DNA of 64,000 bases from a virus, in IMG/VR virus record IMGVR_UViG_3300032268_001078, positions 1 through 64,000 of that record. One strand, written 5' to 3'. How positions within the stretch are numbered: position 1 is the stretch's first letter; every line of letters begins with the position of its first letter. A program made the position numbers and the translations under genes. Positions 97 to 62,754 of this stretch are shown piece by piece. A model generated the notes under the pieces. It was not told where the DNA came from. It ran no database searches and saw nothing but the letters and a program-made list of their open reading frames with translations.

Positions 97-113
97 AACT
101 TTTTCTTATACTT

Positions 114-142
114 ATTACACAAAATCTTTTATAAAAAACCCC
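114..142 (-). promoter_or_regulatory. class I phage promoter (GGGG-N18-GTGTAAT)
   Basis: Matches a motif seen 17 times in 1-29 kb, always upstream of a start codon. Confidence 0.75.
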
Positions 143-143
143 T

Positions 144-278
144 TTAAAGGTCCCAATCATAAATAATTTGTCCATTTTGATTTATTTTAAGTTTTTTATT
201 TGTTTTTAGTTTTATTAAATACTCAATTATGAGTTTTGATTCAACAGAAATTATACATTCTATATTATAAAGTGTCAT
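144..278 (-). CDS. microprotein, 44 aa
   Basis: MTLYNIEC...IIYDWDL*. Confidence 0.6.
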   Translation of the reverse strand: MTLYNIECIISVESKLIIEYLIKLKTNKKLKINQNGQIIYDWDL

Positions 279-394
279 AAATCTAAATATTTCATTAATC
301 GATAATACTTCTCACTATTGAATTCTTTACGTAGTCCAATAATAACACCTACTTCATGTTTCCACAACATAAATTCCATATTAATTGGTTTCAT
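275..394 (-). CDS. YLDL microprotein, 39 aa
   Basis: MKPINMEF...RLMKYLDL*. Confidence 0.7.
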   Translation of the reverse strand: MKPINMEFMLWKHEVGVIIGLRKEFNSEKYYRLMKYLDL

Positions 395-540
395 AAGTCT
401 AATAAATTAATTATTTCATTTACCATTGCATCTGTGTATTTTTTGTTTTTAGCATAATTGAGTTTTACCCATAATGAATAACCCATTGAGTTGTGAGGTA
501 TTACTTGCATCCATCTTGCTTTAATTTCAGTTAACCACAT
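391..540 (-). CDS. YLDL-type microprotein, 49 aa
   Basis: MWLTEIKARW...IINLLDL*. Confidence 0.7.
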   Translation of the reverse strand: MWLTEIKARWMQVIPHNSMGYSLWVKLNYAKNKKYTDAMVNEIINLLDL

Positions 541-706
541 CTAAATCTAAAAACTTAAATAAATCTTCATTTATATTTTTTTCTATTTCATAAAACAAAT
601 CATTGTTATCAACATCCACATATAAAAAATACATTTCTATGTATAGATAATTAGCGTAGTCTTTAACAACATCGTCTATTGTCCATTCAATTACTCTTCT
701 TATCAT
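527..706 (-). CDS. YLDL-type microprotein, 59 aa
   Basis: MIRRVIEW...FKFLDLDVVN*. Confidence 0.7.
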   Translation of the reverse strand: MIRRVIEWTIDDVVKDYANYLYIEMYFLYVDVDNNDLFYEIEKNINEDLFKFLDLDVVN

Positions 707-879
707 ATGTTTAAATCTAAAAAATAATACAAATCTTCACTTTTATTTTTTGAATCTTTATTAAATAATCCACCCGTACTAACATCACCAAACCCATATC
801 TTAAATATACATTCATATAATCATAGTTTGCATAGTCGTGTATACTATCTTTCATACTCCATTTATAATTCCATTTCAT
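703..879 (-). CDS. YLDL-type microprotein, 58 aa
   Basis: MKWNYKWS...YYFLDLNI*. Confidence 0.7.
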   Translation of the reverse strand: MKWNYKWSMKDSIHDYANYDYMNVYLRYGFGDVSTGGLFNKDSKNKSEDLYYFLDLNI

Positions 880-1004
880 AAGTACAAATAATTTACTAAT
901 ACTTTTATTTTATGTTTAATTGGGTAATCAACAAAAAAATCATACATTACATATAACTCATATTTAGATTTAGTCATATCTTCTATTTGTTCTTTAGTCA
1001 TCAT
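876..1004 (-). CDS. YLDL-type microprotein, 42 aa
   Basis: MMTKEQIE...VLVNYLYL*. Confidence 0.7.
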   Translation of the reverse strand: MMTKEQIEDMTKSKYELYVMYDFFVDYPIKHKIKVLVNYLYL

Positions 1005-1141
1005 AAGTACAAATAATTACACATTACAATATTTCTTACTAAATAAATTCCATGATAATAATTATCATTAAAATGGCTATAAATACCTATTGGTGGGTAT
1101 TTTACATAAGCCATATCATATACTTTACTGTATTCCATCAT
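1001..1141 (-). CDS. YLDL-type microprotein, 46 aa
   Basis: MMEYSKVY...VMCNYLYL*. Confidence 0.7.
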   Translation of the reverse strand: MMEYSKVYDMAYVKYPPIGIYSHFNDNYYHGIYLVRNIVMCNYLYL

Positions 1142-1275
1142 AAGTCTAAATAAGTTATTATTATGTTTGTAAATATTCCATGATGTTTTTTGTATTTGTT
1201 TTTATAGTAAATTAAATTACCTATATTATAATCCCATTTACTCATTAAATTTATATTATTCTTTTTATTCATCAT
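1138..1275 (-). CDS. YLDL microprotein, 45 aa
   Basis: MMNKKNNI...IIITYLDL*. Confidence 0.7.
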   Translation of the reverse strand: MMNKKNNINLMSKWDYNIGNLIYYKNKYKKHHGIFTNIIITYLDL

Positions 1276-1421
1276 ATATCTAAATAATCTAATAAATCAT
1301 CAATGTATTGTGGTTTATTTATAATTGTTTTTTTATAACGTATAATATGTTGTATACTATTTATAACATAATGTGTTTTATAATCATAAAGTCTTCTTAA
1401 CATTAAATCTCGATTTGTCAT
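1272..1421 (-). CDS. YLDL-type microprotein, 49 aa
   Basis: MTNRDLML...DLLDYLDI*. Confidence 0.7.
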   Translation of the reverse strand: MTNRDLMLRRLYDYKTHYVINSIQHIIRYKKTIINKPQYIDDLLDYLDI

Positions 1422-1549
1422 AAGTCTAAATAATATACTGTTGAGTATATATAGTCGGTGTAATATTTACGTGTTTTTTGAATGTGAATTAATACACTAC
1501 AATAAAACTCATCATATGCTATATCTTCTATCTGTAATTCATTCATCAT
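1418..1549 (-). CDS. YLDL microprotein, 43 aa
   Basis: MMNELQIE...STVYYLDL*. Confidence 0.7.
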   Translation of the reverse strand: MMNELQIEDIAYDEFYCSVLIHIQKTRKYYTDYIYSTVYYLDL

Positions 1550-1677
1550 AAGTCTAAATAATCTATTAATTCAATATGTTTTAACCGAATATCAAACCAA
1601 TTCATAACATTAATAGTTGTTGTAAAACCATATTTGTGATGTGCCATACTACTTATTTTAAATGGAACAATTTTCAT
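1546..1677 (-). CDS. YLDL microprotein, 43 aa
   Basis: MKIVPFKI...ELIDYLDL*. Confidence 0.7.
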   Translation of the reverse strand: MKIVPFKISSMAHHKYGFTTTINVMNWFDIRLKHIELIDYLDL

Positions 1678-1802
1678 AAGTCTAAATAATTTGAAAAGTA
1701 TGTTTGTATTTCATAATAATTTGGTTCTTTTGATATTTTCAATAATATTTTTACATTATACTCATAACTTGATATAATATATATTGAATATTTTCCTGTC
1801 AT
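1674..1802 (-). CDS. YLDL microprotein, 42 aa
   Basis: MTGKYSIY...YFSNYLDL*. Confidence 0.7.
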   Translation of the reverse strand: MTGKYSIYIISSYEYNVKILLKISKEPNYYEIQTYFSNYLDL

Positions 1803-1960
1803 ATGTCTAAATATACTGATAAATTATGAATAAGCCATTCTACATTTTGACCACCTAAATTAAATGCTTGAGCATGATCAGTATAATGACGATACACACT
1901 ACTTAAAAGTAATGCAGGTCTGTGTCTGTTTGCTATTGATGTTAATTTATTTTCATTCAT
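1799..1960 (-). CDS. YLDL-type microprotein, 53 aa
   Basis: MNENKLTS...NLSVYLDI*. Confidence 0.7.
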   Translation of the reverse strand: MNENKLTSIANRHRPALLLSSVYRHYTDHAQAFNLGGQNVEWLIHNLSVYLDI

Positions 1961-2088
1961 AAGTCTAAATAATCTATTAATCTATAATATGAATAATCAA
2001 ATCCCTCACTAAAATCTCTACACATTCCAGCAATACTATTCATTTTATACTCATATTTTGCCATATCCGATACTGTAATGCGATTCAT
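1957..2088 (-). CDS. YLDL microprotein, 43 aa
   Basis: MNRITVSD...RLIDYLDL*. Confidence 0.7.
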   Translation of the reverse strand: MNRITVSDMAKYEYKMNSIAGMCRDFSEGFDYSYYRLIDYLDL

Positions 2089-2252
2089 TATATGTCTAAA
2101 TATATTATCATATCACTTACAAAATATTTACGACTTTTATTATAAGTGGGATATTCTTTGTCTTGAAAAGAACTAAATACTTTGTTTATTACAAACACAC
2201 TGTGTTTGTGTGTACCAATGTATTCTATTCTTTCAATTATATTAAATTTCAT
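2088..2252 (-). CDS. YLDL-type microprotein, 54 aa
   Basis: MKFNIIER...MIIYLDI*. Confidence 0.7.
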   Translation of the reverse strand: MKFNIIERIEYIGTHKHSVFVINKVFSSFQDKEYPTYNKSRKYFVSDMIIYLDI

Positions 2253-2359
2253 ATATCAAACCACTCACCTAAACTATTTCTATTAAAATACTTAAATTTC
2301 AAAAAACCATGTGATATATACTCCATGTTTTTGTATGTTGCTATTTGAAACCAACTCAT
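2249..2359 (-). CDS. microprotein, 36 aa
   Basis: MSWFQIAT...GEWFDI*; TAATG overlap with the upstream gene. Confidence 0.6.
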   Translation of the reverse strand: MSWFQIATYKNMEYISHGFLKFKYFNRNSLGEWFDI

Positions 2360-2616
2360 TACAATCTATTTGCAATAGTTTTGATAAATTCTTCTTCAGC
2401 TGGTGTTAGTTGAATTCTATTTGAATGAAGTTTATCAATTGCTTTGTCCCATTCTAAGTCCATTAAGTTTTTACTGCGTTCATTAATAGATGAAGCACGT
2501 AAATAATCATTATAATTTAACCATTTAATAACTTCTTCGATTTCATAATCATTACATTCCTCTAGAAAATCATCTACATCAACGTCTACGTCTGTGTCTA
2601 TGTATACTCTTGCCAT
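2359..2616 (-). CDS. hypothetical phage protein
   Basis: 85 aa ORF in track, coupled to its neighbours. Confidence 0.75.
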   Translation of the reverse strand: MARVYIDTDVDVDVDDFLEECNDYEIEEVIKWLNYNDYLRASSINERSKNLMDLEWDKAIDKLHSNRIQLTPAEEEFIKTIANRL

Positions 2617-2617
2617 A

Positions 2618-2743
2618 TTATTTAAATATAAAATTTGCTAATCCAAATATAACTCTTAAAATTACTACTGCGGCTACTAATGCTGTGATTCCAATTCCTA
2701 AACCAACAGCGATTATGTATAAAACTTTATTTAACTTTTCCAT
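2618..2743 (-). CDS. small membrane protein, 41 aa
   Basis: MEKLNKVLYIIAVGLGIGITALVAAVVIL..., one hydrophobic helix. Confidence 0.6.
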   Translation of the reverse strand: MEKLNKVLYIIAVGLGIGITALVAAVVILRVIFGLANFIFK

Positions 2744-2744
2744 A

Positions 2745-2855
2745 TTATTTACTTAAATCTATTAAATTATATTTAACTAAAATACTTACTACTAATACTA
2801 TAATACATAATACTATAATACCTAAACCATAACTTGAATTTATTACTTTTTTCAT
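2745..2855 (-). CDS. small membrane protein, 36 aa
   Basis: MKKVINSSYGLGIIVLCIIVLVSILV...; first gene after the promoter at 2875-2903. Confidence 0.55.
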   Translation of the reverse strand: MKKVINSSYGLGIIVLCIIVLVVSILVKYNLIDLSK

Positions 2856-2874
2856 ATTTTTATCTTTTATAATT

Positions 2875-2903
2875 ATTACACAAAAACTTTTATTAAATCC
2901 CCC
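2875..2903 (-). promoter_or_regulatory. class I phage promoter
   Basis: GGGGG-N17-GTGTAAT overlapping the sigma gene stop; drives array A. Confidence 0.75.
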
Positions 2904-3411
2904 TTAATAAGAGTTGTTTTTTTAAAAATTTTCTTGCTTTAGCTAATTGTGAACGCGATGTTCCTTCAGTTATATTTAACTCTTTACTAATTAATTTATG
3001 TGATTTTCCTTCAAATACATATGAAGTAAATACTGTTTTATATCCACTAGGTAGTTTTTCTATTTCATTAACAATGTCTTGAAATTCAAGATTATTAAAT
3101 CCGTAGTCGACACATCCAAATATATCTCTATAATCAGTTATGTCGACTTCCGAATTTGATTTGTTGGTTCGAATTTTATTTATGCTATAATTTTTAACTA
3201 TAGAATATAAGTATGAATGAATACTATTATTTGTAATATTAGAACAATTGTTAAATAAAGACATAAACGATTCAACCAACACATCTTCTGTATCTTCAAT
3301 GTTTTTGGTATATCTAATACTCAACTTATACATTGATTCGTAGTAGGTTTTATATACTTGAGCTTGTGCTCGCGAATCGTTTTTAATTAAGTCTTTAATT
3401 AGTTGTTCCAT
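2893..3411 (-). CDS. ECF-type sigma-70 factor (Bacteroidota-like)
   Basis: Region 2 (AQAQVY...EDTEDVLVESF) and region 4 (KLPSGYKTVF...EGKSHKLISKELNITEGTSRSQLAKARK). Confidence 0.9.
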   Translation of the reverse strand: MEQLIKDLIKNDSRAQAQVYKTYYESMYKLSIRYTKNIEDTEDVLVESFMSLFNNCSNITNNSIHSYLYSIVKNYSINKIRTNKSNSEVDITDYRDIFGCVDYGFNNLEFQDIVNEIEKLPSGYKTVFTSYVFEGKSHKLISKELNITEGTSRSQLAKARKFLKKQLLLRGI

Positions 3412-3413
3412 AG

Positions 3414-3671
3414 TTAAAATGTGTGTGTTATTCCTATAGTTTTAACTGTTTGTACAGTATCAACATTTACTGATCTAAATTGACGTTTTTTCATATCATA
3501 AACAGTAATGAGTCCTTTTTCAGCAGCATCATATGGTAAACCTACTCCTGTTACACCTTTTTTAACACCACGTCTAGCATTCATTACTCTAACTGTTCCA
3601 TCTTTTTTAGTAAATGTAACTGTGAAGATTTTATTCCCCATTGCTTTAATAATTTTTTCTCTTTTATTCAT
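3414..3671 (-). CDS. WYL_2/Sm-like SH3-barrel phage protein
   Basis: FTVTFTKKDGTVRVMNAR...VYDM....FRS pattern. Confidence 0.55.
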   Translation of the reverse strand: MNKREKIIKAMGNKIFTVTFTKKDGTVRVMNARRGVKKGVTGVGLPYDAAEKGLITVYDMKKRQFRSVNVDTVQTVKTIGITHTF

Positions 3672-4328: not shown

Positions 4329-5081
4329 TTACTGTTTCATAATCTCAATTGCTTTAACTTTTATTGTTCTAACAGACTCTTTAGACATTTTCATTTTTTC
4401 TGCTACTTCTTTTAGTTCTAATTGTTCACAGTCCAACCCAAATAACATATTGACTACTTTCATTTGTTTTTCATCTAATTTAGATGTAAGTCGTTTCATT
4501 ATTAGTTTTTGTTCAAGTTGGTCTTCAGGACTGTCTGCATTTGAATTTTTAACTATATCAATCAACATTCCATCATCACCTATTTTATCATATAAATCAT
4601 ATGTTGATGGTAAACTAGCATACTCATCATCTATATCTATATTTTTTTCATTTTGTAATTTTATTTGTCTGTGTAATTCTTTAGACACATTTTCAGGTAA
4701 TCGAATTAATCTTGAATTAGTGTAAATATTACTGTATAATTCAGCCATCACAAGCCATTTAGCATGTGTTATAAATTTAATATCACGTGTAAAATCAAAT
4801 GAATTCATTGCTTTTACTAGTCCTAAATTACCACTTGAAATCAAGTCTTCTAATTCAATTCCTAATCCAACAAATTTATGTGCTTGTTGAATTACATATC
4901 GTAAGTGACCTTCAATCAATTCATTTTTTAATTTTAATTTTTCACTTTCACTTACATTAGGATCTAATATTAATTTTTTAATTTGATTTTCACGTTTTAA
5001 ATCTACAATTGATGTTTCTCTTACATCTCGTGAATAATTTTGATAACTTTTACTTGTACTAAATATTTTCTTTCCTGCCAT
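4329..5081 (-). CDS. RpoD/RpoS-family sigma-70 factor
   Basis: LIEGHLRYVI, DLISSGNLGLVKAM..FD....KFITHAKW, LIRLP, and a region 4 HTH (LKEVAEKMKMSKESVRTIK). Confidence 0.9.
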   Translation of the reverse strand: MAGKKIFSTSKSYQNYSRDVRETSIVDLKRENQIKKLILDPNVSESEKLKLKNELIEGHLRYVIQQAHKFVGLGIELEDLISSGNLGLVKAMNSFDFTRDIKFITHAKWLVMAELYSNIYTNSRLIRLPENVSKELHRQIKLQNEKNIDIDDEYASLPSTYDLYDKIGDDGMLIDIVKNSNADSPEDQLEQKLIMKRLTSKLDEKQMKVVNMLFGLDCEQLELKEVAEKMKMSKESVRTIKVKAIEIMKQ

Positions 5082-17900: not shown

Positions 17901-18068
17901 TTAATAAAGTTCATAGTAATTTAATAACATTCTAAATGTTGATTCATCTATCTTCGTTTTTTTAGCAGTATCTATAAACTCAATAATTCGACCTATAGGG
18001 CGGATATAAGCATCGTTACTATAATTTTTTATATCATGAATGAATTCTTTAATATCTTTTTCTACCAT
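17901..18068 (-). CDS. YYEL microprotein, 55 aa
   Basis: MVEKDIKE...LLNYYELY*. Confidence 0.7.
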   Translation of the reverse strand: MVEKDIKEFIHDIKNYSNDAYIRPIGRIIEFIDTAKKTKIDESTFRMLLNYYELY

Positions 18069-18073
18069 ATTTT

Positions 18074-18244
18074 TTAAAGTTCATAATAATGAAGTATTTC
18101 CTCTAATTCAATGATTTTGGTGGATTGTTGTTGGTATTTACTAATTTTGTTTATATTAAAAATAATACTACGTACATTACTAATATACGTGCCATTAGTA
18201 TAATACCTCATATCTGTACATTTTTGGTAAAAATTATAGTTCAT
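18074..18244 (-). CDS. YYEL microprotein, 56 aa
   Basis: MNYNFYQK...ILHYYEL*. Confidence 0.7.
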   Translation of the reverse strand: MNYNFYQKCTDMRYYTNGTYISNVRSIIFNINKISKYQQQSTKIIELEEILHYYEL

Positions 18245-18392
18245 AATAGTCTAATATCCAATCATAATTTATTTGTGGTGAGTCGCTATTTTTGATAGCA
18301 TCTATTGATTCAATAATATTATTTATATGTTCGATGTAAATATACCTGTTGTATTTTACTATTTGTTGTATTTGTACTTCAATATAGTTCAT
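18234..18392 (-). CDS. YYEL microprotein, 52 aa
   Basis: MNYIEVQI...ILDYYEL*. Confidence 0.7.
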   Translation of the reverse strand: MNYIEVQIQQIVKYNRYIYIEHINNIIESIDAIKNSDSPQINYDWILDYYEL

Positions 18393-18531
18393 AATAATCT
18401 AATAAATCATCAACAGCATCCTTATCTTTGTCTTGTTTAATATCATTTATTAAATCAATAACATTATGTCTAAATTTGATATAAACATCATTGTTGTATT
18501 CTAATATATCTAATATTTCATATATAGTCAT
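18379..18531 (-). CDS. YYEL microprotein, 50 aa
   Basis: MTIYEILD...LLDYYELY*. Confidence 0.7.
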   Translation of the reverse strand: MTIYEILDILEYNNDVYIKFRHNVIDLINDIKQDKDKDAVDDLLDYYELY

Positions 18532-18674
18532 AATACTAATCTATTTGATAATAGAGTTAAATAAAATCTATAACCACGAACTACATCAGATGGAGTGAAA
18601 TTTTTTAGATGTTCTACATGATCATTTTGATGTAATCTTACTATTCTTAACATCATACGGTATTCTCTAGTCAT
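18528..18674 (-). CDS. microprotein, 48 aa
   Basis: MTREYRMMLRI...YLTLLSNRLVL*; paralog of the next ORF. Confidence 0.65.
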   Translation of the reverse strand: MTREYRMMLRIVRLHQNDHVEHLKNFTPSDVVRGYRFYLTLLSNRLVL

Positions 18675-18823
18675 AATTGTAACCTTAATACTAATCCGTT
18701 TAAATAAGTTTTTAAATCACAATCTAAATCATATGGATAATAGTTTATCATATAATTCAAGTAATAGTTATTGTCTTGATAACAATTTAATATTCTTAAC
18801 ATTGAATAATAGTCTCTAGTCAT
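18671..18823 (-). CDS. microprotein, 50 aa
   Basis: MTRDYYSMLRI...YLNGLVLRLQL*. Confidence 0.65.
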   Translation of the reverse strand: MTRDYYSMLRILNCYQDNNYYLNYMINYYPYDLDCDLKTYLNGLVLRLQL

Positions 18824-18957
18824 ATTCTCATCCAAATTTTTATCCAAGTGTTTATATCTGACGATTTACGATTGAAAGGACATATTATTTCATGTGAACG
18901 TTCTACAAGTTTGTTTACTGTACATTTGTGAATATATGATTCCATCCTATATTTCAT
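18820..18957 (-). CDS. microprotein, 45 aa
   Basis: MKYRMESY...KIWMRI*. Confidence 0.6.
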   Translation of the reverse strand: MKYRMESYIHKCTVNKLVERSHEIICPFNRKSSDINTWIKIWMRI

Positions 18958-19127
18958 AATATAAATCTACTTATTAATGCGGTATTCATTTGACCACTGA
19001 GTGTTATACCATTTGTTAATGCGTTTCTCCACATAACAATTTCTATAATATTCTTATATCCTATTCCATAAGTAGAACAACATTTCATTTTAATCATATT
19101 ATGATATTTTAAGTTGTAGTCTGTCAT
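18954..19127 (-). CDS. microprotein, 57 aa
   Basis: MTDYNLKY...LISRFIL*. Confidence 0.6.
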   Translation of the reverse strand: MTDYNLKYHNMIKMKCCSTYGIGYKNIIEIVMWRNALTNGITLSGQMNTALISRFIL

Positions 19128-19291
19128 TATAGTTCCATTACATCACGTAAACTCGCATTAGCACTATTTGACATAATAATAAATCTTCTATTATCTATAA
19201 TATTTCTAACTCTCATCATTCTAAAATGATTTGCTTGAAATGAAAAACTAGCCAACCTTACTATATAAAGTGTCGTATTATGTTTACCCAT
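19127..19291 (-). CDS. microprotein, 54 aa
   Basis: MGKHNTTL...RDVMEL*. Confidence 0.6.
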   Translation of the reverse strand: MGKHNTTLYIVRLASFSFQANHFRMMRVRNIIDNRRFIIMSNSANASLRDVMEL

Positions 19292-19434
19292 TATTTTACC
19301 ACAAACACTCTTAATCTAAATAATAAATGGTCTTTAACATTAAACATACTAATATTTGGATTTACTAAATAAATATAATATTCAGTAAAATCTGTATATG
19401 CCATTATTCTAGCATTAAAACTATTCAGCATCAT
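19291..19434 (-). CDS. microprotein, 47 aa
   Basis: MMLNSFNA...FRLRVFVVK*. Confidence 0.55.
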   Translation of the reverse strand: MMLNSFNARIMAYTDFTEYYIYLVNPNISMFNVKDHLLFRLRVFVVK

Positions 19435-20311: not shown

Positions 20312-20539
20312 TTATTTCACAAAATCTTTTATAAAATTCCCCTCTTTTCTTAATTCTCTTAAATCTTCTAAATCAAACCTACTTACTAGTTCATCTAACT
20401 GATATCTTTTTTCAAAACATGTAGGTTTACTAATAATTTTATCAGTAGTAATATAGTATTCTAATACAGCACTACAAACACCACAATACCATTTACTTAC
20501 GTGGTATCCTATTATTTCATCTTTTGAAAAACACGACAT
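20312..20539 (-). CDS. array C small protein (LDE-x5-DLE-x-L)
   Basis: YQLDELVSRFDLEDL. Confidence 0.65.
   Translation of the reverse strand: MSCFSKDEIIGYHVSKWYCGVCSAVLEYYITTDKIISKPTCFEKRYQLDELVSRFDLEDLRELRKEGNFIKDFVK
20314..20342 (-). promoter_or_regulatory. class I promoter variant
   Basis: GGGG-N18-GTGAAAT. Confidence 0.6.
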
Positions 20540-20544
20540 ATTAT

Positions 20545-20573
20545 ATTACACAAAACCTTTTTTTTAAAACCCT
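20545..20573 (-). promoter_or_regulatory. class I phage promoter
   Basis: AGGG-N18-GTGTAAT. Confidence 0.7.
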
Positions 20574-20574
20574 T

Positions 20575-20778
20575 TTATCTCATTTTAAATAAATTTTCTA
20601 AATCCATAGAACAAATTACTTCATCTAACCAATACATACAAGGATCATTTTTAAAATCAACAATATCATTTTTAATAGTGTAAAAAATATCAAAATCAAT
20701 ATATTCCTTTTCATCAAGATAAATATACCATTTGTCTCTATAGTATTCCATCATTTCTTCTTTAGTGTATGCTGCCAT
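20575..20778 (-). CDS. array C small protein
   Basis: CMYWLDEVICSMDLENL. Confidence 0.7.
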   Translation of the reverse strand: MAAYTKEEMMEYYRDKWYIYLDEKEYIDFDIFYTIKNDIVDFKNDPCMYWLDEVICSMDLENLFKMR

Positions 20779-20941
20779 TTTCTAATTCCTCTAAATCTAA
20801 ATAAATACACATTTCATCTAACCAAAAATTACATCTATCATCTAAAAAACTATTTATGTCTTCTGTTAATTTTAAAATATCATTGTATTTATCAGTTGCT
20901 TGATAATCAATTATCGTTTTTTTAATATTGGATATCATCAT
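20762..20941 (-). CDS. array C microprotein, 59 aa (paralog of 20575-20778)
   Basis: MMISNIKK...CNFWLDEMCIYLDLEELENGSIH*. Confidence 0.7.
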   Translation of the reverse strand: MMISNIKKTIIDYQATDKYNDILKLTEDINSFLDDRCNFWLDEMCIYLDLEELENGSIH

Positions 20942-21114
20942 AATAAATTGTCTAAGTCTAAGTCTCTAACTGCTGAATTAAGTGCGAATTCGTTCATTGA
21001 GTAACTGTATCTTGGATGATGAATTTTATACATAAACCAAATTATTTGTCCAATATAATGATCATTACCTGCGACTTGACTCATAATAATTATTGCCTTA
21101 TTATTATCTTCCAT
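20938..21114 (-). CDS. array C microprotein, 58 aa
   Basis: MEDNNKAI...VRDLDLDNLL*. Confidence 0.65.
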   Translation of the reverse strand: MEDNNKAIIIMSQVAGNDHYIGQIIWFMYKIHHPRYSYSMNEFALNSAVRDLDLDNLL

Positions 21115-21280
21115 TTATGTATATAGGCGTTTTAATCTCATCTAAGCCAAAATAGTTTAAAAACATAGGTGATCTGTATCTTGATTTGTTCCACATATCT
21201 ACTACTGATAGTATTTCTTTTATATTGTATCCTCTTCTTGAATAAAACTCTATAAATGATGTTATTTCAAAATTTTTCAT
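21104..21280 (-). CDS. array C microprotein, 58 aa
   Basis: MKNFEITS...NYFGLDEIKTPIYINGR*. Confidence 0.6.
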   Translation of the reverse strand: MKNFEITSFIEFYSRRGYNIKEILSVVDMWNKSRYRSPMFLNYFGLDEIKTPIYINGR

Positions 21281-21281
21281 C

Positions 21282-21461
21282 TTAATTTTTATACTTTCCT
21301 ATTCTTACCTCATCTTCAAATTCTTCTAAGTCTAAATATTCTTCCACCATATCCACATAACTCTCAACATCTAAATAAAGTCTACGATATTTTAGTACTT
21401 TTTGCATATTATATGCAAAATGTGCATGGTCTTTAATTAAAAATTCTCTAAGTACTTTCAT
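21282..21461 (-). CDS. array C microprotein, 59 aa
   Basis: MKVLREFL...EEYLDLEEFEDEVRIGKYKN*. Confidence 0.65.
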   Translation of the reverse strand: MKVLREFLIKDHAHFAYNMQKVLKYRRLYLDVESYVDMVEEYLDLEEFEDEVRIGKYKN

Positions 21462-21649
21462 AATAGTTTATCTAAATCTAAATAGGACGATGCTCTACGT
21501 TGAAATGTTTTTATTGTATCTGTACTACACGAAGTAGGAGTTGATTGTTTGTAAACATCTAATAACCACAGTATAAAATACTTATGGTCTTTCACTGTGT
21601 CTTCCATACGCATTTTACGTATACCTAAATCTATTGGTTTTTGTCTCAT
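21458..21649 (-). CDS. array C small protein
   Basis: ...SSYLDLDKLL*. Confidence 0.65.
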   Translation of the reverse strand: MRQKPIDLGIRKMRMEDTVKDHKYFILWLLDVYKQSTPTSCSTDTIKTFQRRASSYLDLDKLL

Positions 21650-21843
21650 AGTGGTTCTAAGTCTAACATAGCTTCACATCTATTTATGTACTTCAATGTG
21701 GTTACAATAGTACTTTCTCCTTTAGAAAACTGTATACCTCTCACAAGTAAAAGAAAATATTTTACATAATTACCATTTATTGTTTGACCATCTTGTAGTC
21801 TAACCATATTTCCAATCAACTCAGTTTTTTCGATGTACATCAT
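21646..21843 (-). CDS. array C small protein
   Basis: ...EAMLDLEPL*. Confidence 0.65.
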   Translation of the reverse strand: MMYIEKTELIGNMVRLQDGQTINGNYVKYFLLLVRGIQFSKGESTIVTTLKYINRCEAMLDLEPL

Positions 21844-21860
21844 TGAAATTTTATTTTATC

Positions 21861-22055
21861 TTATGCAAAATGTAAATCTAATTTATGATATGGATTAACG
21901 TGTCTAATAGCAACTCTATTAGGCATACTTAGTTTAGGTGAATTTTCTACTTTTATAACATAAAGTTCTTCATCCATTACTACTAAGTCTTTAATAGTAA
22001 ACAAATCAGTTACATATGTTTCTATAAAGTAGGGTTCGTATTCTCTTGGTTCCAT
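21861..22055 (-). CDS. hypothetical protein
   Basis: 64 aa ORF overlapping the end of the phosphoesterase gene. Confidence 0.45.
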   Translation of the reverse strand: MEPREYEPYFIETYVTDLFTIKDLVVMDEELYVIKVENSPKLSMPNRVAIRHVNPYHKLDLHFA

Positions 22056-61140: not shown

Positions 61141-62754
61141 TTAGTATCCCATTCCCATATCCATCATTGATTGTGCATCATCTTTCTTTTCTTCAAAAAT
61201 AACACTTTCTGAAGTTAAAATAGTACTAGCTACTGATAATGCATTTTCTAGTGCTACTCTTGTTACTTTAAATGGATCTAAAATTCCAGCTTCATACGCA
61301 TTAACTACTTCTTGTTTTTTAGCATCATAAGTCAATTCAACGGATTTCATTAAATATCCAACTGTTTCAATATCTACGTCTAATCCTGCGTTGTCCATAA
61401 TTTTCATAAATGGACTACTAATAGCTTTAGCAATGATTTTCTTACCCATTGTTTCTTGAGTCATTCCAAGAGCAATGTTATACAATGGCCATCCACCACC
61501 TGGAATGATACCTTCTGCTAAAGCTGCTTTAGTAGCATACAATGCATCTTCAACACGATCTCTTTTTTCTTTAATTTCAAGATCACTGTTTCCACCAACT
61601 GAAATGATAGCAACTCCACCACTTAATTTAGCTAAACGTTCTTGTAGTTTTTCTTTTTCAAACATTGATTGAGCATTATCGATTTGATTTTTTAGTTCTT
61701 CTGCTCTTATTTCTAATGCTTCACTACTTCCTTTACCATCAACAATAGTTGTTGATTCTTTAGTAATAGTTACCATTCTAGCATTACCTAAACACTGTTC
61801 TAATACAGGACCTACAACTTTTTCAAGTTTAATACCTTGTTTTTTAACACTAACAACTTGTCCACCTGTTAATGTAGCCATGTCTTCTAACAATAATGTT
61901 CTACGATCACCATAGTCTGGTGCTTTAATAGCACATGCTTTAACTACACCTCTTGATTTATTAATTAATAATACTGCTAATGCTTCTTCACCAAATTCTT
62001 CAGCTACAATTACTAATGATTTGTTTTCACCACTTGCTTTTTGTAAAACAGGAACTAATTCAGCTGCTGAATTGATAACACCATCTACTAATAAAATCAT
62101 TGGATCATTTAATACTGCTTTCATTGTAGCATTGTCAGTTACAAAATAAGGTGATTTATAACCTCTTTCAAACTGCATACCTTCAACAAAGTCTAATACT
62201 GTCTCACCAGTTTTACTAGATTCAATAGTAACAATTCCATCATATCCAACTTCTTCAATTGCATCTGCTAATAAACGACCAATTTCTTCATCGTTGTTTC
62301 CTGAAATCGTAGCAATGTTAAATAATTGTTCATTTGAAGTAACAGGAACAGATAATGCTTTTAATTCATTAATAACTTCAGTTACTGCTGTTTCCATTTG
62401 TTGTTTTACTTCAACAACATTAGTACCTTTTTCAATTAACTTCATTCCTTCTTCAATCATAACAGTCGCTAAAAGAGTAGAAGTAGTAGTACCATCACCA
62501 GCTTCATTTGCTGATTTTACAGCTACTTGTTTTACTAGTTGTGCACCAATATTTTCAATATCATCATCTAATTTATGAAAACTTTTAGCTACACTAACAC
62601 CATCTTTAGTTGCTTTAATAGTTCCATCTGCTTCATTAATTAATACATTTCTGCCACCTGGGCCTAAAGTTGAACTTACACTAGCATTCAATTTAAGAAT
62701 GCCATCTAGTAATTTTTGTTTTAATTCGGTTCCGAATAATGTTTTTGTGCTCAT
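61141..62754 (-). CDS. groEL: chaperonin GroEL
   Basis: TLGPGGRNV, TKDGVSVA, AGDGTTT, EGMQFERGY, KLQERLAKLSGGVA, GIIPGGG. Confidence 0.97.
   Translation of the reverse strand: MSTKTLFGTELKQKLLDGILKLNASVSSTLGPGGRNVLINEADGTIKATKDGVSVAKSFHKLDDDIENIGAQLVKQVAVKSANEAGDGTTTSTLLATVMIEEGMKLIEKGTNVVEVKQQMETAVTEVINELKALSVPVTSNEQLFNIATISGNNDEEIGRLLADAIEEVGYDGIVTIESSKTGETVLDFVEGMQFERGYKSPYFVTDNATMKAVLNDPMILLVDGVINSAAELVPVLQKASGENKSLVIVAEEFGEEALAVLLINKSRGVVKACAIKAPDYGDRRTLLLEDMATLTGGQVVSVKKQGIKLEKVVGPVLEQCLGNARMVTITKESTTIVDGKGSSEALEIRAEELKNQIDNAQSMFEKEKLQERLAKLSGGVAIISVGGNSDLEIKEKRDRVEDALYATKAALAEGIIPGGGWPLYNIALGMTQETMGKKIIAKAISSPFMKIMDNAGLDVDIETVGYLMKSVELTYDAKKQEVVNAYEAGILDPFKVTRVALENALSVASTILTSESVIFEEKKDDAQSMMDMGMGY

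Follow-up and report, generated by a model that had tools for sequence, protein, structure and literature searches.

The DNA examined here (the window) comprises the first 64 kb of a 179,715-bp phage record in IMG/VR, IMGVR_UViG_3300032268_001078, which has a GC content of 29.7% and is rated complete by CheckV; contigs carrying parts of this phage DNA originate from lake, pond and other aquatic metagenomes. The minus strand holds nearly all of the genes of this genome, including the subject of the present work, array A, a series of 16 open reading frames (ORFs) of 36–59 amino acids (aa) each that lie back to back between positions 144 and 2359. The original prediction, made from the sequence alone, had described these 16 ORFs and listed their endings as YLDL or YLDI, YLYL, LLDL, FLDLNI, FLDLDVVN, WFDI and WDL, all of which were recovered; its remark that the ORF track held no minus-strand ORF here reflected a limit of that track, as all 16 are minus-strand ORFs.

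Thirteen of the 15 junctions between consecutive ORFs are four-base ATGA overlaps of stop and start, one is a one-base overlap (TAATG) and one extends over 14 bases. Since a promoter-like motif, AAGGGG-N15-TTTGTGTAATA(agTATAA), flanks the array with copies at 2884 and 123 and none between them, and since neither an excess of sigma-70-like sites nor, on either strand, any terminator-like site was found within the array, array A is likely to form a single polycistronic operon. Its bracketing by a repeated promoter-like motif had been noted previously. The motif is followed by two micro-ORFs, the gene for an acidic 85-aa protein, 15 paralogous cassettes (lettered by orthogroup) and a final 44-aa ORF, as listed here from the head of the operon.

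2866–2912, minus strand: promoter-like motif AAGGGG-N15-TTTGTGTAATA, operon head; one of 15 exact TTTGTGTAATA copies
2745–2855, minus strand: opening gene of the operon, a 36-aa ORF containing a single hydrophobic segment; found in all relatives
2618–2743, minus strand: 41-aa ORF with one hydrophobic segment; found in all relatives
2359–2616, minus strand: acidic, conserved 85-aa protein, the stop of which overlaps the start of cassette a
2249–2359, minus strand: cassette a, 36 aa, tail WFDI; belongs to the divergent subfamily a/b/d
2088–2252, minus strand: cassette e, 54 aa, tail YLDI
1957–2088, minus strand: cassette i, 43 aa, tail YLDL; upstream stop TAA, start shifted to the second ATG
1799–1960, minus strand: cassette f, 53 aa, tail YLDI; chimeric junction that combines the f body with the h>j junction
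1674–1802, minus strand: cassette j, 42 aa, tail YLDL; missing in some lake contigs
1546–1677, minus strand: cassette l, 43 aa, tail YLDL
1418–1549, minus strand: cassette m, 43 aa, tail YLDL; the first member for which a fold was predicted
1272–1421, minus strand: cassette n, 49 aa, tail YLDI
1138–1275, minus strand: cassette p, 45 aa, tail YLDL
1001–1141, minus strand: cassette r, 46 aa, tail YLYL
876–1004, minus strand: cassette s, 42 aa, tail YLYL
703–879, minus strand: cassette t, 58 aa, tail FLDLNI
527–706, minus strand: cassette u, 59 aa, tail FLDLDVVN; skipped together with v in some lake contigs
391–540, minus strand: cassette v, 49 aa, tail LLDL; overlaps u by 14 bases
275–394, minus strand: cassette w, 39 aa, tail YLDL
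144–278, minus strand: terminal 44-aa ORF (group y/z) ending in WDL, outside the tail family and part of another small family; its orthologues in three relatives end in NPFY
100–150, minus strand: next copy of the promoter-like motif, marking where the operon ends

At the e>i junction (2086–2092) the usual TGA stop has become TAA, and cassette i starts at the second ATG of the ATGATG found in relatives. Double-methionine starts are frequent among the cassettes and may buffer against such stop/start changes.

Judged from their sequences, the cassettes are real coding genes. When the substitutions observed between orthologues were re-placed at random in the same sequences, 5.5–13.8 new in-frame stops were expected per pair, while none was seen in any of the eight pairs analysed (P ≤ 0.004 each). 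All length differences between orthologues are in frame, and every one of about 100 cassettes has retained its own ATG; together, these three observations constitute strong, albeit indirect, evidence for translation. Frameshifted copies of the terminal motif, an outcome that the original prediction regarded as damaging to it, were not found, and the ORFs have been kept open.

Fifteen of the 16 ORFs share a tail of the form hydrophobic-x-x-[Y/W/F/L]-[L/F]-[D/Y]-[L/I], to which two of them add 2–4 residues. The bodies preceding these tails had been thought to be mutually unrelated, a view that has to be revised: after removal of the tails, ten of the 16 scored in the top 2.5% of their own 200 shuffles against a leave-one-out hidden Markov model (HMM) built from the other 15, and alignments of 16, 96 and 107 members retain, besides the tail, an isoleucine near position 7 and a tyrosine near position 15. 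Paralogues within the window are on average 22% identical, the best pairs reaching 33–39%. The cassettes are best regarded as diverged paralogues of one gene, the microgenes having arisen as a unit of about 130 bp was duplicated in tandem.

The ratios of nonsynonymous to synonymous substitution rates (dN/dS), all calculated by the method of Nei and Gojobori, differ along the cassettes. They amount to 0.57–1.40 for the bodies and to 0.17–0.75 for the last five codons (no more than 0.35 in seven of ten pairs), compared with 0.04–0.35 for the flanking genes and 0.10–0.35 for the acidic 85-aa protein. In most pairs the tail dN is 2–5 times below that of the body at equal dS. The tail is conserved as a peptide, because dN/dS is lower in the last five codons at a dS similar to that of the bodies, in line with the earlier proposal of selection on the peptide. 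The rates of the bodies fit either diversifying or very relaxed selection on residues combined with selection that keeps the product intact.

When 5.8 billion proteins were searched with a profile, 41 small proteins were returned, all of them orthologues of single cassettes with approximately 50–98% identity, and their contigs yielded six further loci, which with the window represent five distinct arrays. The array of the window, with 16 ORFs, also occurs as a near-identical copy on a 182-kb contig; one relative has 20 cassettes and three others have 22 each, one of these three arrays being seen on two contigs. Every array is chained in the same manner and flanked by the same 85-aa gene and by a gene of 135/136 aa. 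Clustering placed the cassettes in 26 orthogroups, a to z, the order of which is collinear among the five arrays. Searched exhaustively with an HMM, 1.84 billion cluster representatives yielded only 18 proteins at E ≤ 0.001, and since all of them belong to these orthogroups, the family is specific to one phage lineage.

All differences among the five arrays concern whole cassettes, which are present, absent, duplicated or moved. The array of the window lacks orthogroups d, g, h, k, o and q, cassettes j and w have local duplicates in some phages, and cassette i has been relocated in one phage and occurs as a second copy in another. A comparison of cassette content and order between relatives had been set as a test beforehand; the arrays are not identical, and their maps bear out the variable, cassette-like layout that had been proposed. 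In the near-identical 182-kb relative, a block of four genes (135, 63, 89 and 74 aa) that follows the array has itself been tandemly doubled (L010:7454–9930).

The points at which cassettes have been exchanged lie inside the repeated 15–17-base junction, in which the tail codons, the stop and the following start are combined. In the window, the f>j junction consists of f sequence up to TATTTAGAC, followed by ATATGACAG, which in relatives follows h; this chimera is the product to be expected from a crossover within the repeat that deleted g and h. Contigs from other lake metagenomes carry further joints at cassette borders. One connects 390 to 703 and omits u and v, as seen in two runs; another, likewise from two runs, connects 1679 to 1805 and omits j; a third connects 2087 to 1674 and places j before i. 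At each of these joints 9–11 bases fit both sides. As the breakpoints fall inside the repeated junction, the earlier idea that it serves as a recombination point gains support. The 17-mer ATTATTTAGACTTATGA, reported previously at 1418, 1546, 1674 and 1957, is present and exact at all four positions, and ten copies with up to two mismatches, all at minus-strand junctions, compare with 0.1 expected by chance. A canonical 15-mer, TATTTAGAC[T/A]TATGA, is common to the central groups e, f, h, i, j, k, l, m, n, p, q and x, in which most cassette changes occur, while the junctions of the groups at the edges of the array (a, b, d, t, u, v and w) have diverged. We read the likeness of the junctions as concerted evolution, in which recombination between junctions would homogenize them; conceivably, the junction bases also help re-initiation at the next ATG.

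The explanation that we favour, and hold to be probable rather than firmly established, is that array A is one operon of tandemly duplicated, fast-changing, coding microgenes with a constrained tail, exchanged as whole cassettes at their junctions and having a pre-replicative accessory role. Because each cassette retains its own ATG, translation would most likely proceed by termination and re-initiation at the ATGA overlaps. The bodies evolve at a rate that is near-neutral or diversifying, whereas the last 4–8 residues (hydrophobic-x-x-Y-L-D-L) are held under purifying selection; these residues would form the end of a C-terminal amphipathic helix that all members require, be it to fold or to contact a partner. 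Cassettes are gained, lost, duplicated and moved as whole units, with breakpoints in the junctions, and recombination between junctions would both shuffle them and homogenize the junction DNA. Their products would be dispensable pre-replicative accessory proteins acting on variable host targets, in host takeover or counter-defence.

Several observations weigh against this explanation. A dN/dS near 1 in the bodies is equally compatible with weak constraint on their residues. Of 20 orthogroups, 13 use mostly GAC for the tail aspartate, whereas 21% would be expected (P = 2.6e-5), and the tail leucines are encoded only by TTA or TTG, never by CTN; the DNA itself is therefore subject to some constraint or to gene conversion. 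Early or pre-replicative expression of the array is suggested only by its position and promoter class, a class unlinked to any sigma factor, and the sequencing runs that match this DNA include no listed RNA run. Finally, the predicted models of cassettes m and l differ in tertiary fold.

These models were obtained with AlphaFold2 and the family alignment, and consist of three helices (residues 4–11, 14–26 and 30–40) in cassette m, with a pLDDT of 73, and of one long helix (6–42) in cassette l, with a pLDDT of 67. In both, the C-terminal half is helical (pLDDT 70–84) and the helix continues into the tail. The best-kept positions of the tail are hydrophobic (Leu/Met/Ile at −3, Tyr at 0, Leu at +1 and Leu/Ile at +3), with the spacing needed for one face of an amphipathic helix, and in several groups the aspartate at +2 gives way to Tyr, Asn, His or Ala. 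Since the kept positions are hydrophobic, the aspartate is replaceable and the tail ends a predicted helix, the tail would be accounted for by a structural helix no less well than by the docking or degradation tag suggested originally. A Foldseek search against the PDB returned no match, a wide fold search with VIA-align gave only generic helical matches (best Z 5.2) and was uninformative, and a homodimer prediction for cassette m scored 0.00, a value that, having no controls, speaks neither for nor against self-association.

Among the alternatives, the one that survives best, although we consider it unlikely, is that the YLDL-COOH tail is a free C-terminal tag for one hub or protease and the variable bodies are effector parts. 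The protein terminates directly after the motif in 93 of 98 copies, and the tail alone is under clear purifying selection. Moreover, a related motif, YLDL[ED]xL, is found near, but not at, the C-terminus of nine other small proteins, encoded by chained ORFs of 58–75 aa at 20312–22055 on the minus strand; this cluster is weakly related to the array family at the profile level (hhalign probability 52%, E 1.4e-4), and its motif, not being tied to the stop/start junction, argues for a role at the protein level. Against a free tag, it is the hydrophobic positions rather than the aspartate that are kept, extensions of 2–15 residues past the motif are tolerated, and an end exactly at the motif is also to be expected from tandem duplication of a unit bounded by ATGA junctions. 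Throughout the genome the YLDL-type tail is confined to the array and one ORF at 21458–21649, and no protein longer than 100 aa ends in it.

Sliding clamps would be one candidate hub, as C-terminal tails that bind clamps are known from the partners of T4 gp45 and from the bacterial QL[SD]LF motif. No DnaN-type match was found in the genome, however, and the sole match to the gp45 family is weak (16 bits, below the cut-off) and falls on a 235-aa ORF at 77442–78149 that is not clamp-like. Within the phage genome there was neither a usable clamp gene nor a large protein with a matching tail to back the clamp hypothesis.

Quite unlikely, in our estimation, is the wider proposal of a cassette library in which the junction serves at once as contact motif, translational coupler and recombination site, and diversifying effectors share a host hub through the YLDL helix; on this view the phage population could reshuffle and renew its set of effector microproteins. 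An effector role, like a docking or degradation tag, can be entertained for the cassettes, and it is from position, turnover and rate only that we infer an anti-defence or host-takeover function.

We also find it improbable that the junction owes its conservation mainly to a function as nucleic acid, in re-initiation or in recombination, with the YLDL peptide as a by-product. The tail codons lie 12–25 bases upstream of the next ATG and depart from genomic usage: aspartate is encoded by GAC in 59 of 80 copies and by GAT in 21, against a GAC share of 22% genome-wide and 21% before TTA, tyrosine is TAT in 69 of 69 copies, and leucine is restricted as described above. On the other hand, tail and body do not differ in dS, only in dN, and GAC and GAT alternate freely within four orthogroups; such GAC/GAT and TTA/TTG variation, to which the original prediction had pointed, is indeed present. 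Furthermore, cassette a starts without the motif upstream of it, the motif is absent from all 34 other ATGA junctions of the genome, and in the cluster at 20312–22055 the same peptide motif lies 3–15 codons away from the junction.

It is very improbable that the ORFs are kept open only to allow ribosomes or transcription to reach downstream genes, the peptides themselves being functionless. Body dN/dS values of about 1 and the dispensability of whole cassettes between relatives would agree with this idea, but nothing essential lies downstream in the operon, where only the 44-aa ORF precedes the next promoter motif; the tail and two N-terminal positions are kept across paralogues that are otherwise approximately 22% identical, and, were the peptides functionless, deletion of the array would cost less than its upkeep. 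Precursors of ribosomally made, post-translationally modified peptides with a C-terminal 'follower' recognition sequence, which many tandem small genes made of a short conserved and a variable part might bring to mind, are hardly credible here, as no modifying enzyme families were recorded within 6 kb on either side of the arrays in five relatives, the cassettes are not enriched in Cys, Ser or Thr, the conserved positions are distributed over the whole length and the bodies are predicted to be helical. The Pfam families found within these 6 kb are sigma-70 domains and WYL_2, to which one locus adds an RNA ligase and a weak acetyltransferase match, approximately 1.5 and 2.7 kb past the end of the array; the other neighbours are small proteins of no known family. 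Programmed −1 frameshifting into a polyprotein was rejected, since the junction contains no slippery heptamer and the cassettes, about 100 in number, each keep their own ATG.

Searches for known or more distant relatives were largely negative. The best Pfam and PHROG profile hits of the cassettes, from a single member each, are not significant (E 0.0094 in PHROGs and 0.057 in Pfam), and the ESM Atlas gave no usable match for any cassette. The acidic 85-aa protein had no match in a PHROG search and matched only unnamed viral clusters in the ESM Atlas. No near-identical DNA was found in a phage collection, a search of IMG/VR through the neighbouring sigma factor revealed no relative, and a paired-junction DNA pattern matched only the phage's own record in IMG/VR; the family alignment is too variable for a pattern search of relatives. 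The neighbouring ATPase, used to look for the closest cultured phage, gave only distant matches of less than 28% identity.

A literature search on the motif and on comparable arrays returned nothing specific, but the earlier statement that no system with this layout has been described was too strong, since two published accounts deal with phenomena of the same kind. The hyperplastic regions of T4-type phages, with their PeSL cassettes, hold small, non-essential and mostly ORFan genes of the early region, and closely related phages differ there by insertion, deletion or replacement of whole genes through recombination at short flanking repeats, according to Arbiol et al. (2010, PMC2839356). The relatives of array A likewise differ by whole gene units at flanking repeats. 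The PeSL repeat is an intergenic sigma-70-like promoter with a terminator stem-loop, and the genes between the repeats are unrelated (PMC2839356). In array A, by contrast, the repeat is a coding junction composed of tail codons, stop and next ATG, the genes are paralogous, and there is one promoter, with overlaps of 1–14 bases that leave no DNA between the genes. Tandem gene arrays in the jumbo phages G and 121Q have been attributed to tandem duplication (Hua et al., 2017, PMC5646251). They resemble array A in that a large phage carries many copies of one gene and neighbouring copies are homologous. In array A the copies are only about 22% identical, evolve at a dN/dS of about 1 and keep only the terminal motif, which sets it apart from those arrays.

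Large DNA viruses also possess multigene families, such as the MGF of African swine fever virus (ASFV) and the gene accordions of poxviruses, in which copy number changes by unequal recombination. Changing copy number and fast-evolving paralogues that interact with the host are points of likeness to array A, while these viruses infect eukaryotes, their proteins are much larger and the genes are not translationally chained.

Tiny unannotated genes fill a sizeable share of large phage genomes, and array A offers a quantified case of how such microgenes evolve: as coding genes, at an approximately neutral rate save for a terminal motif, and by exchange of units through a repeat that lies within coding sequence. 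Its layout may be a general, hitherto undescribed way in which phages organize accessory microproteins. If the products are directed at the host, the 26 orthogroups would constitute a natural panel of variants for finding the targets that a freshwater phage has to neutralize early in infection.

The setting of the array is compatible with early expression, as had been proposed, since it is a promoter-defined region of small genes adjoining two sigma-factor genes. All 15 exact copies of TTTGTGTAATA in the genome are on the minus strand and are limited to 175–180 kb and 0–28 kb, a region rich in genes of up to 70 aa and in sigma-factor genes; those in the window lie at 123, 2884, 4114, 6446, 9014, 10076, 13139, 14403, 20554, 26630 and 27717. 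The full motif, AAGGGG-N15-TTTGTGTAATA, matches neither the sigma-70 consensus nor the −33/−7 consensus of Bacteroidota. At several copies an ATG follows only 3–5 bases downstream, which would imply leaderless mRNAs or mRNAs with very short leaders.

Three minus-strand genes, at 2893–3411, 3414–3671 and 4329–5081, lie directly upstream of the operon and are conserved in all relatives; two of them are sigma-factor-like, one being ECF-type with 172 aa and the other having 250 aa, and one encodes an 85-aa WYL_2-domain protein. Further along the minus strand, four paralogous ORFs of 50–56 aa (17901–18531), 33–42% identical to the first and ending in YYEL or YYELY, form another small tandem family in which the C-terminus is fixed; profile comparison showed no relation of this cluster to the array. 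Another run of ATGA-chained ORFs, of 45–58 aa and with no obvious common motif, occupies 18528–19434 on the same strand. The phage also encodes a GroEL-type chaperonin at 61141–62754, minus strand (PHROG 5725, E 5.6e-138).

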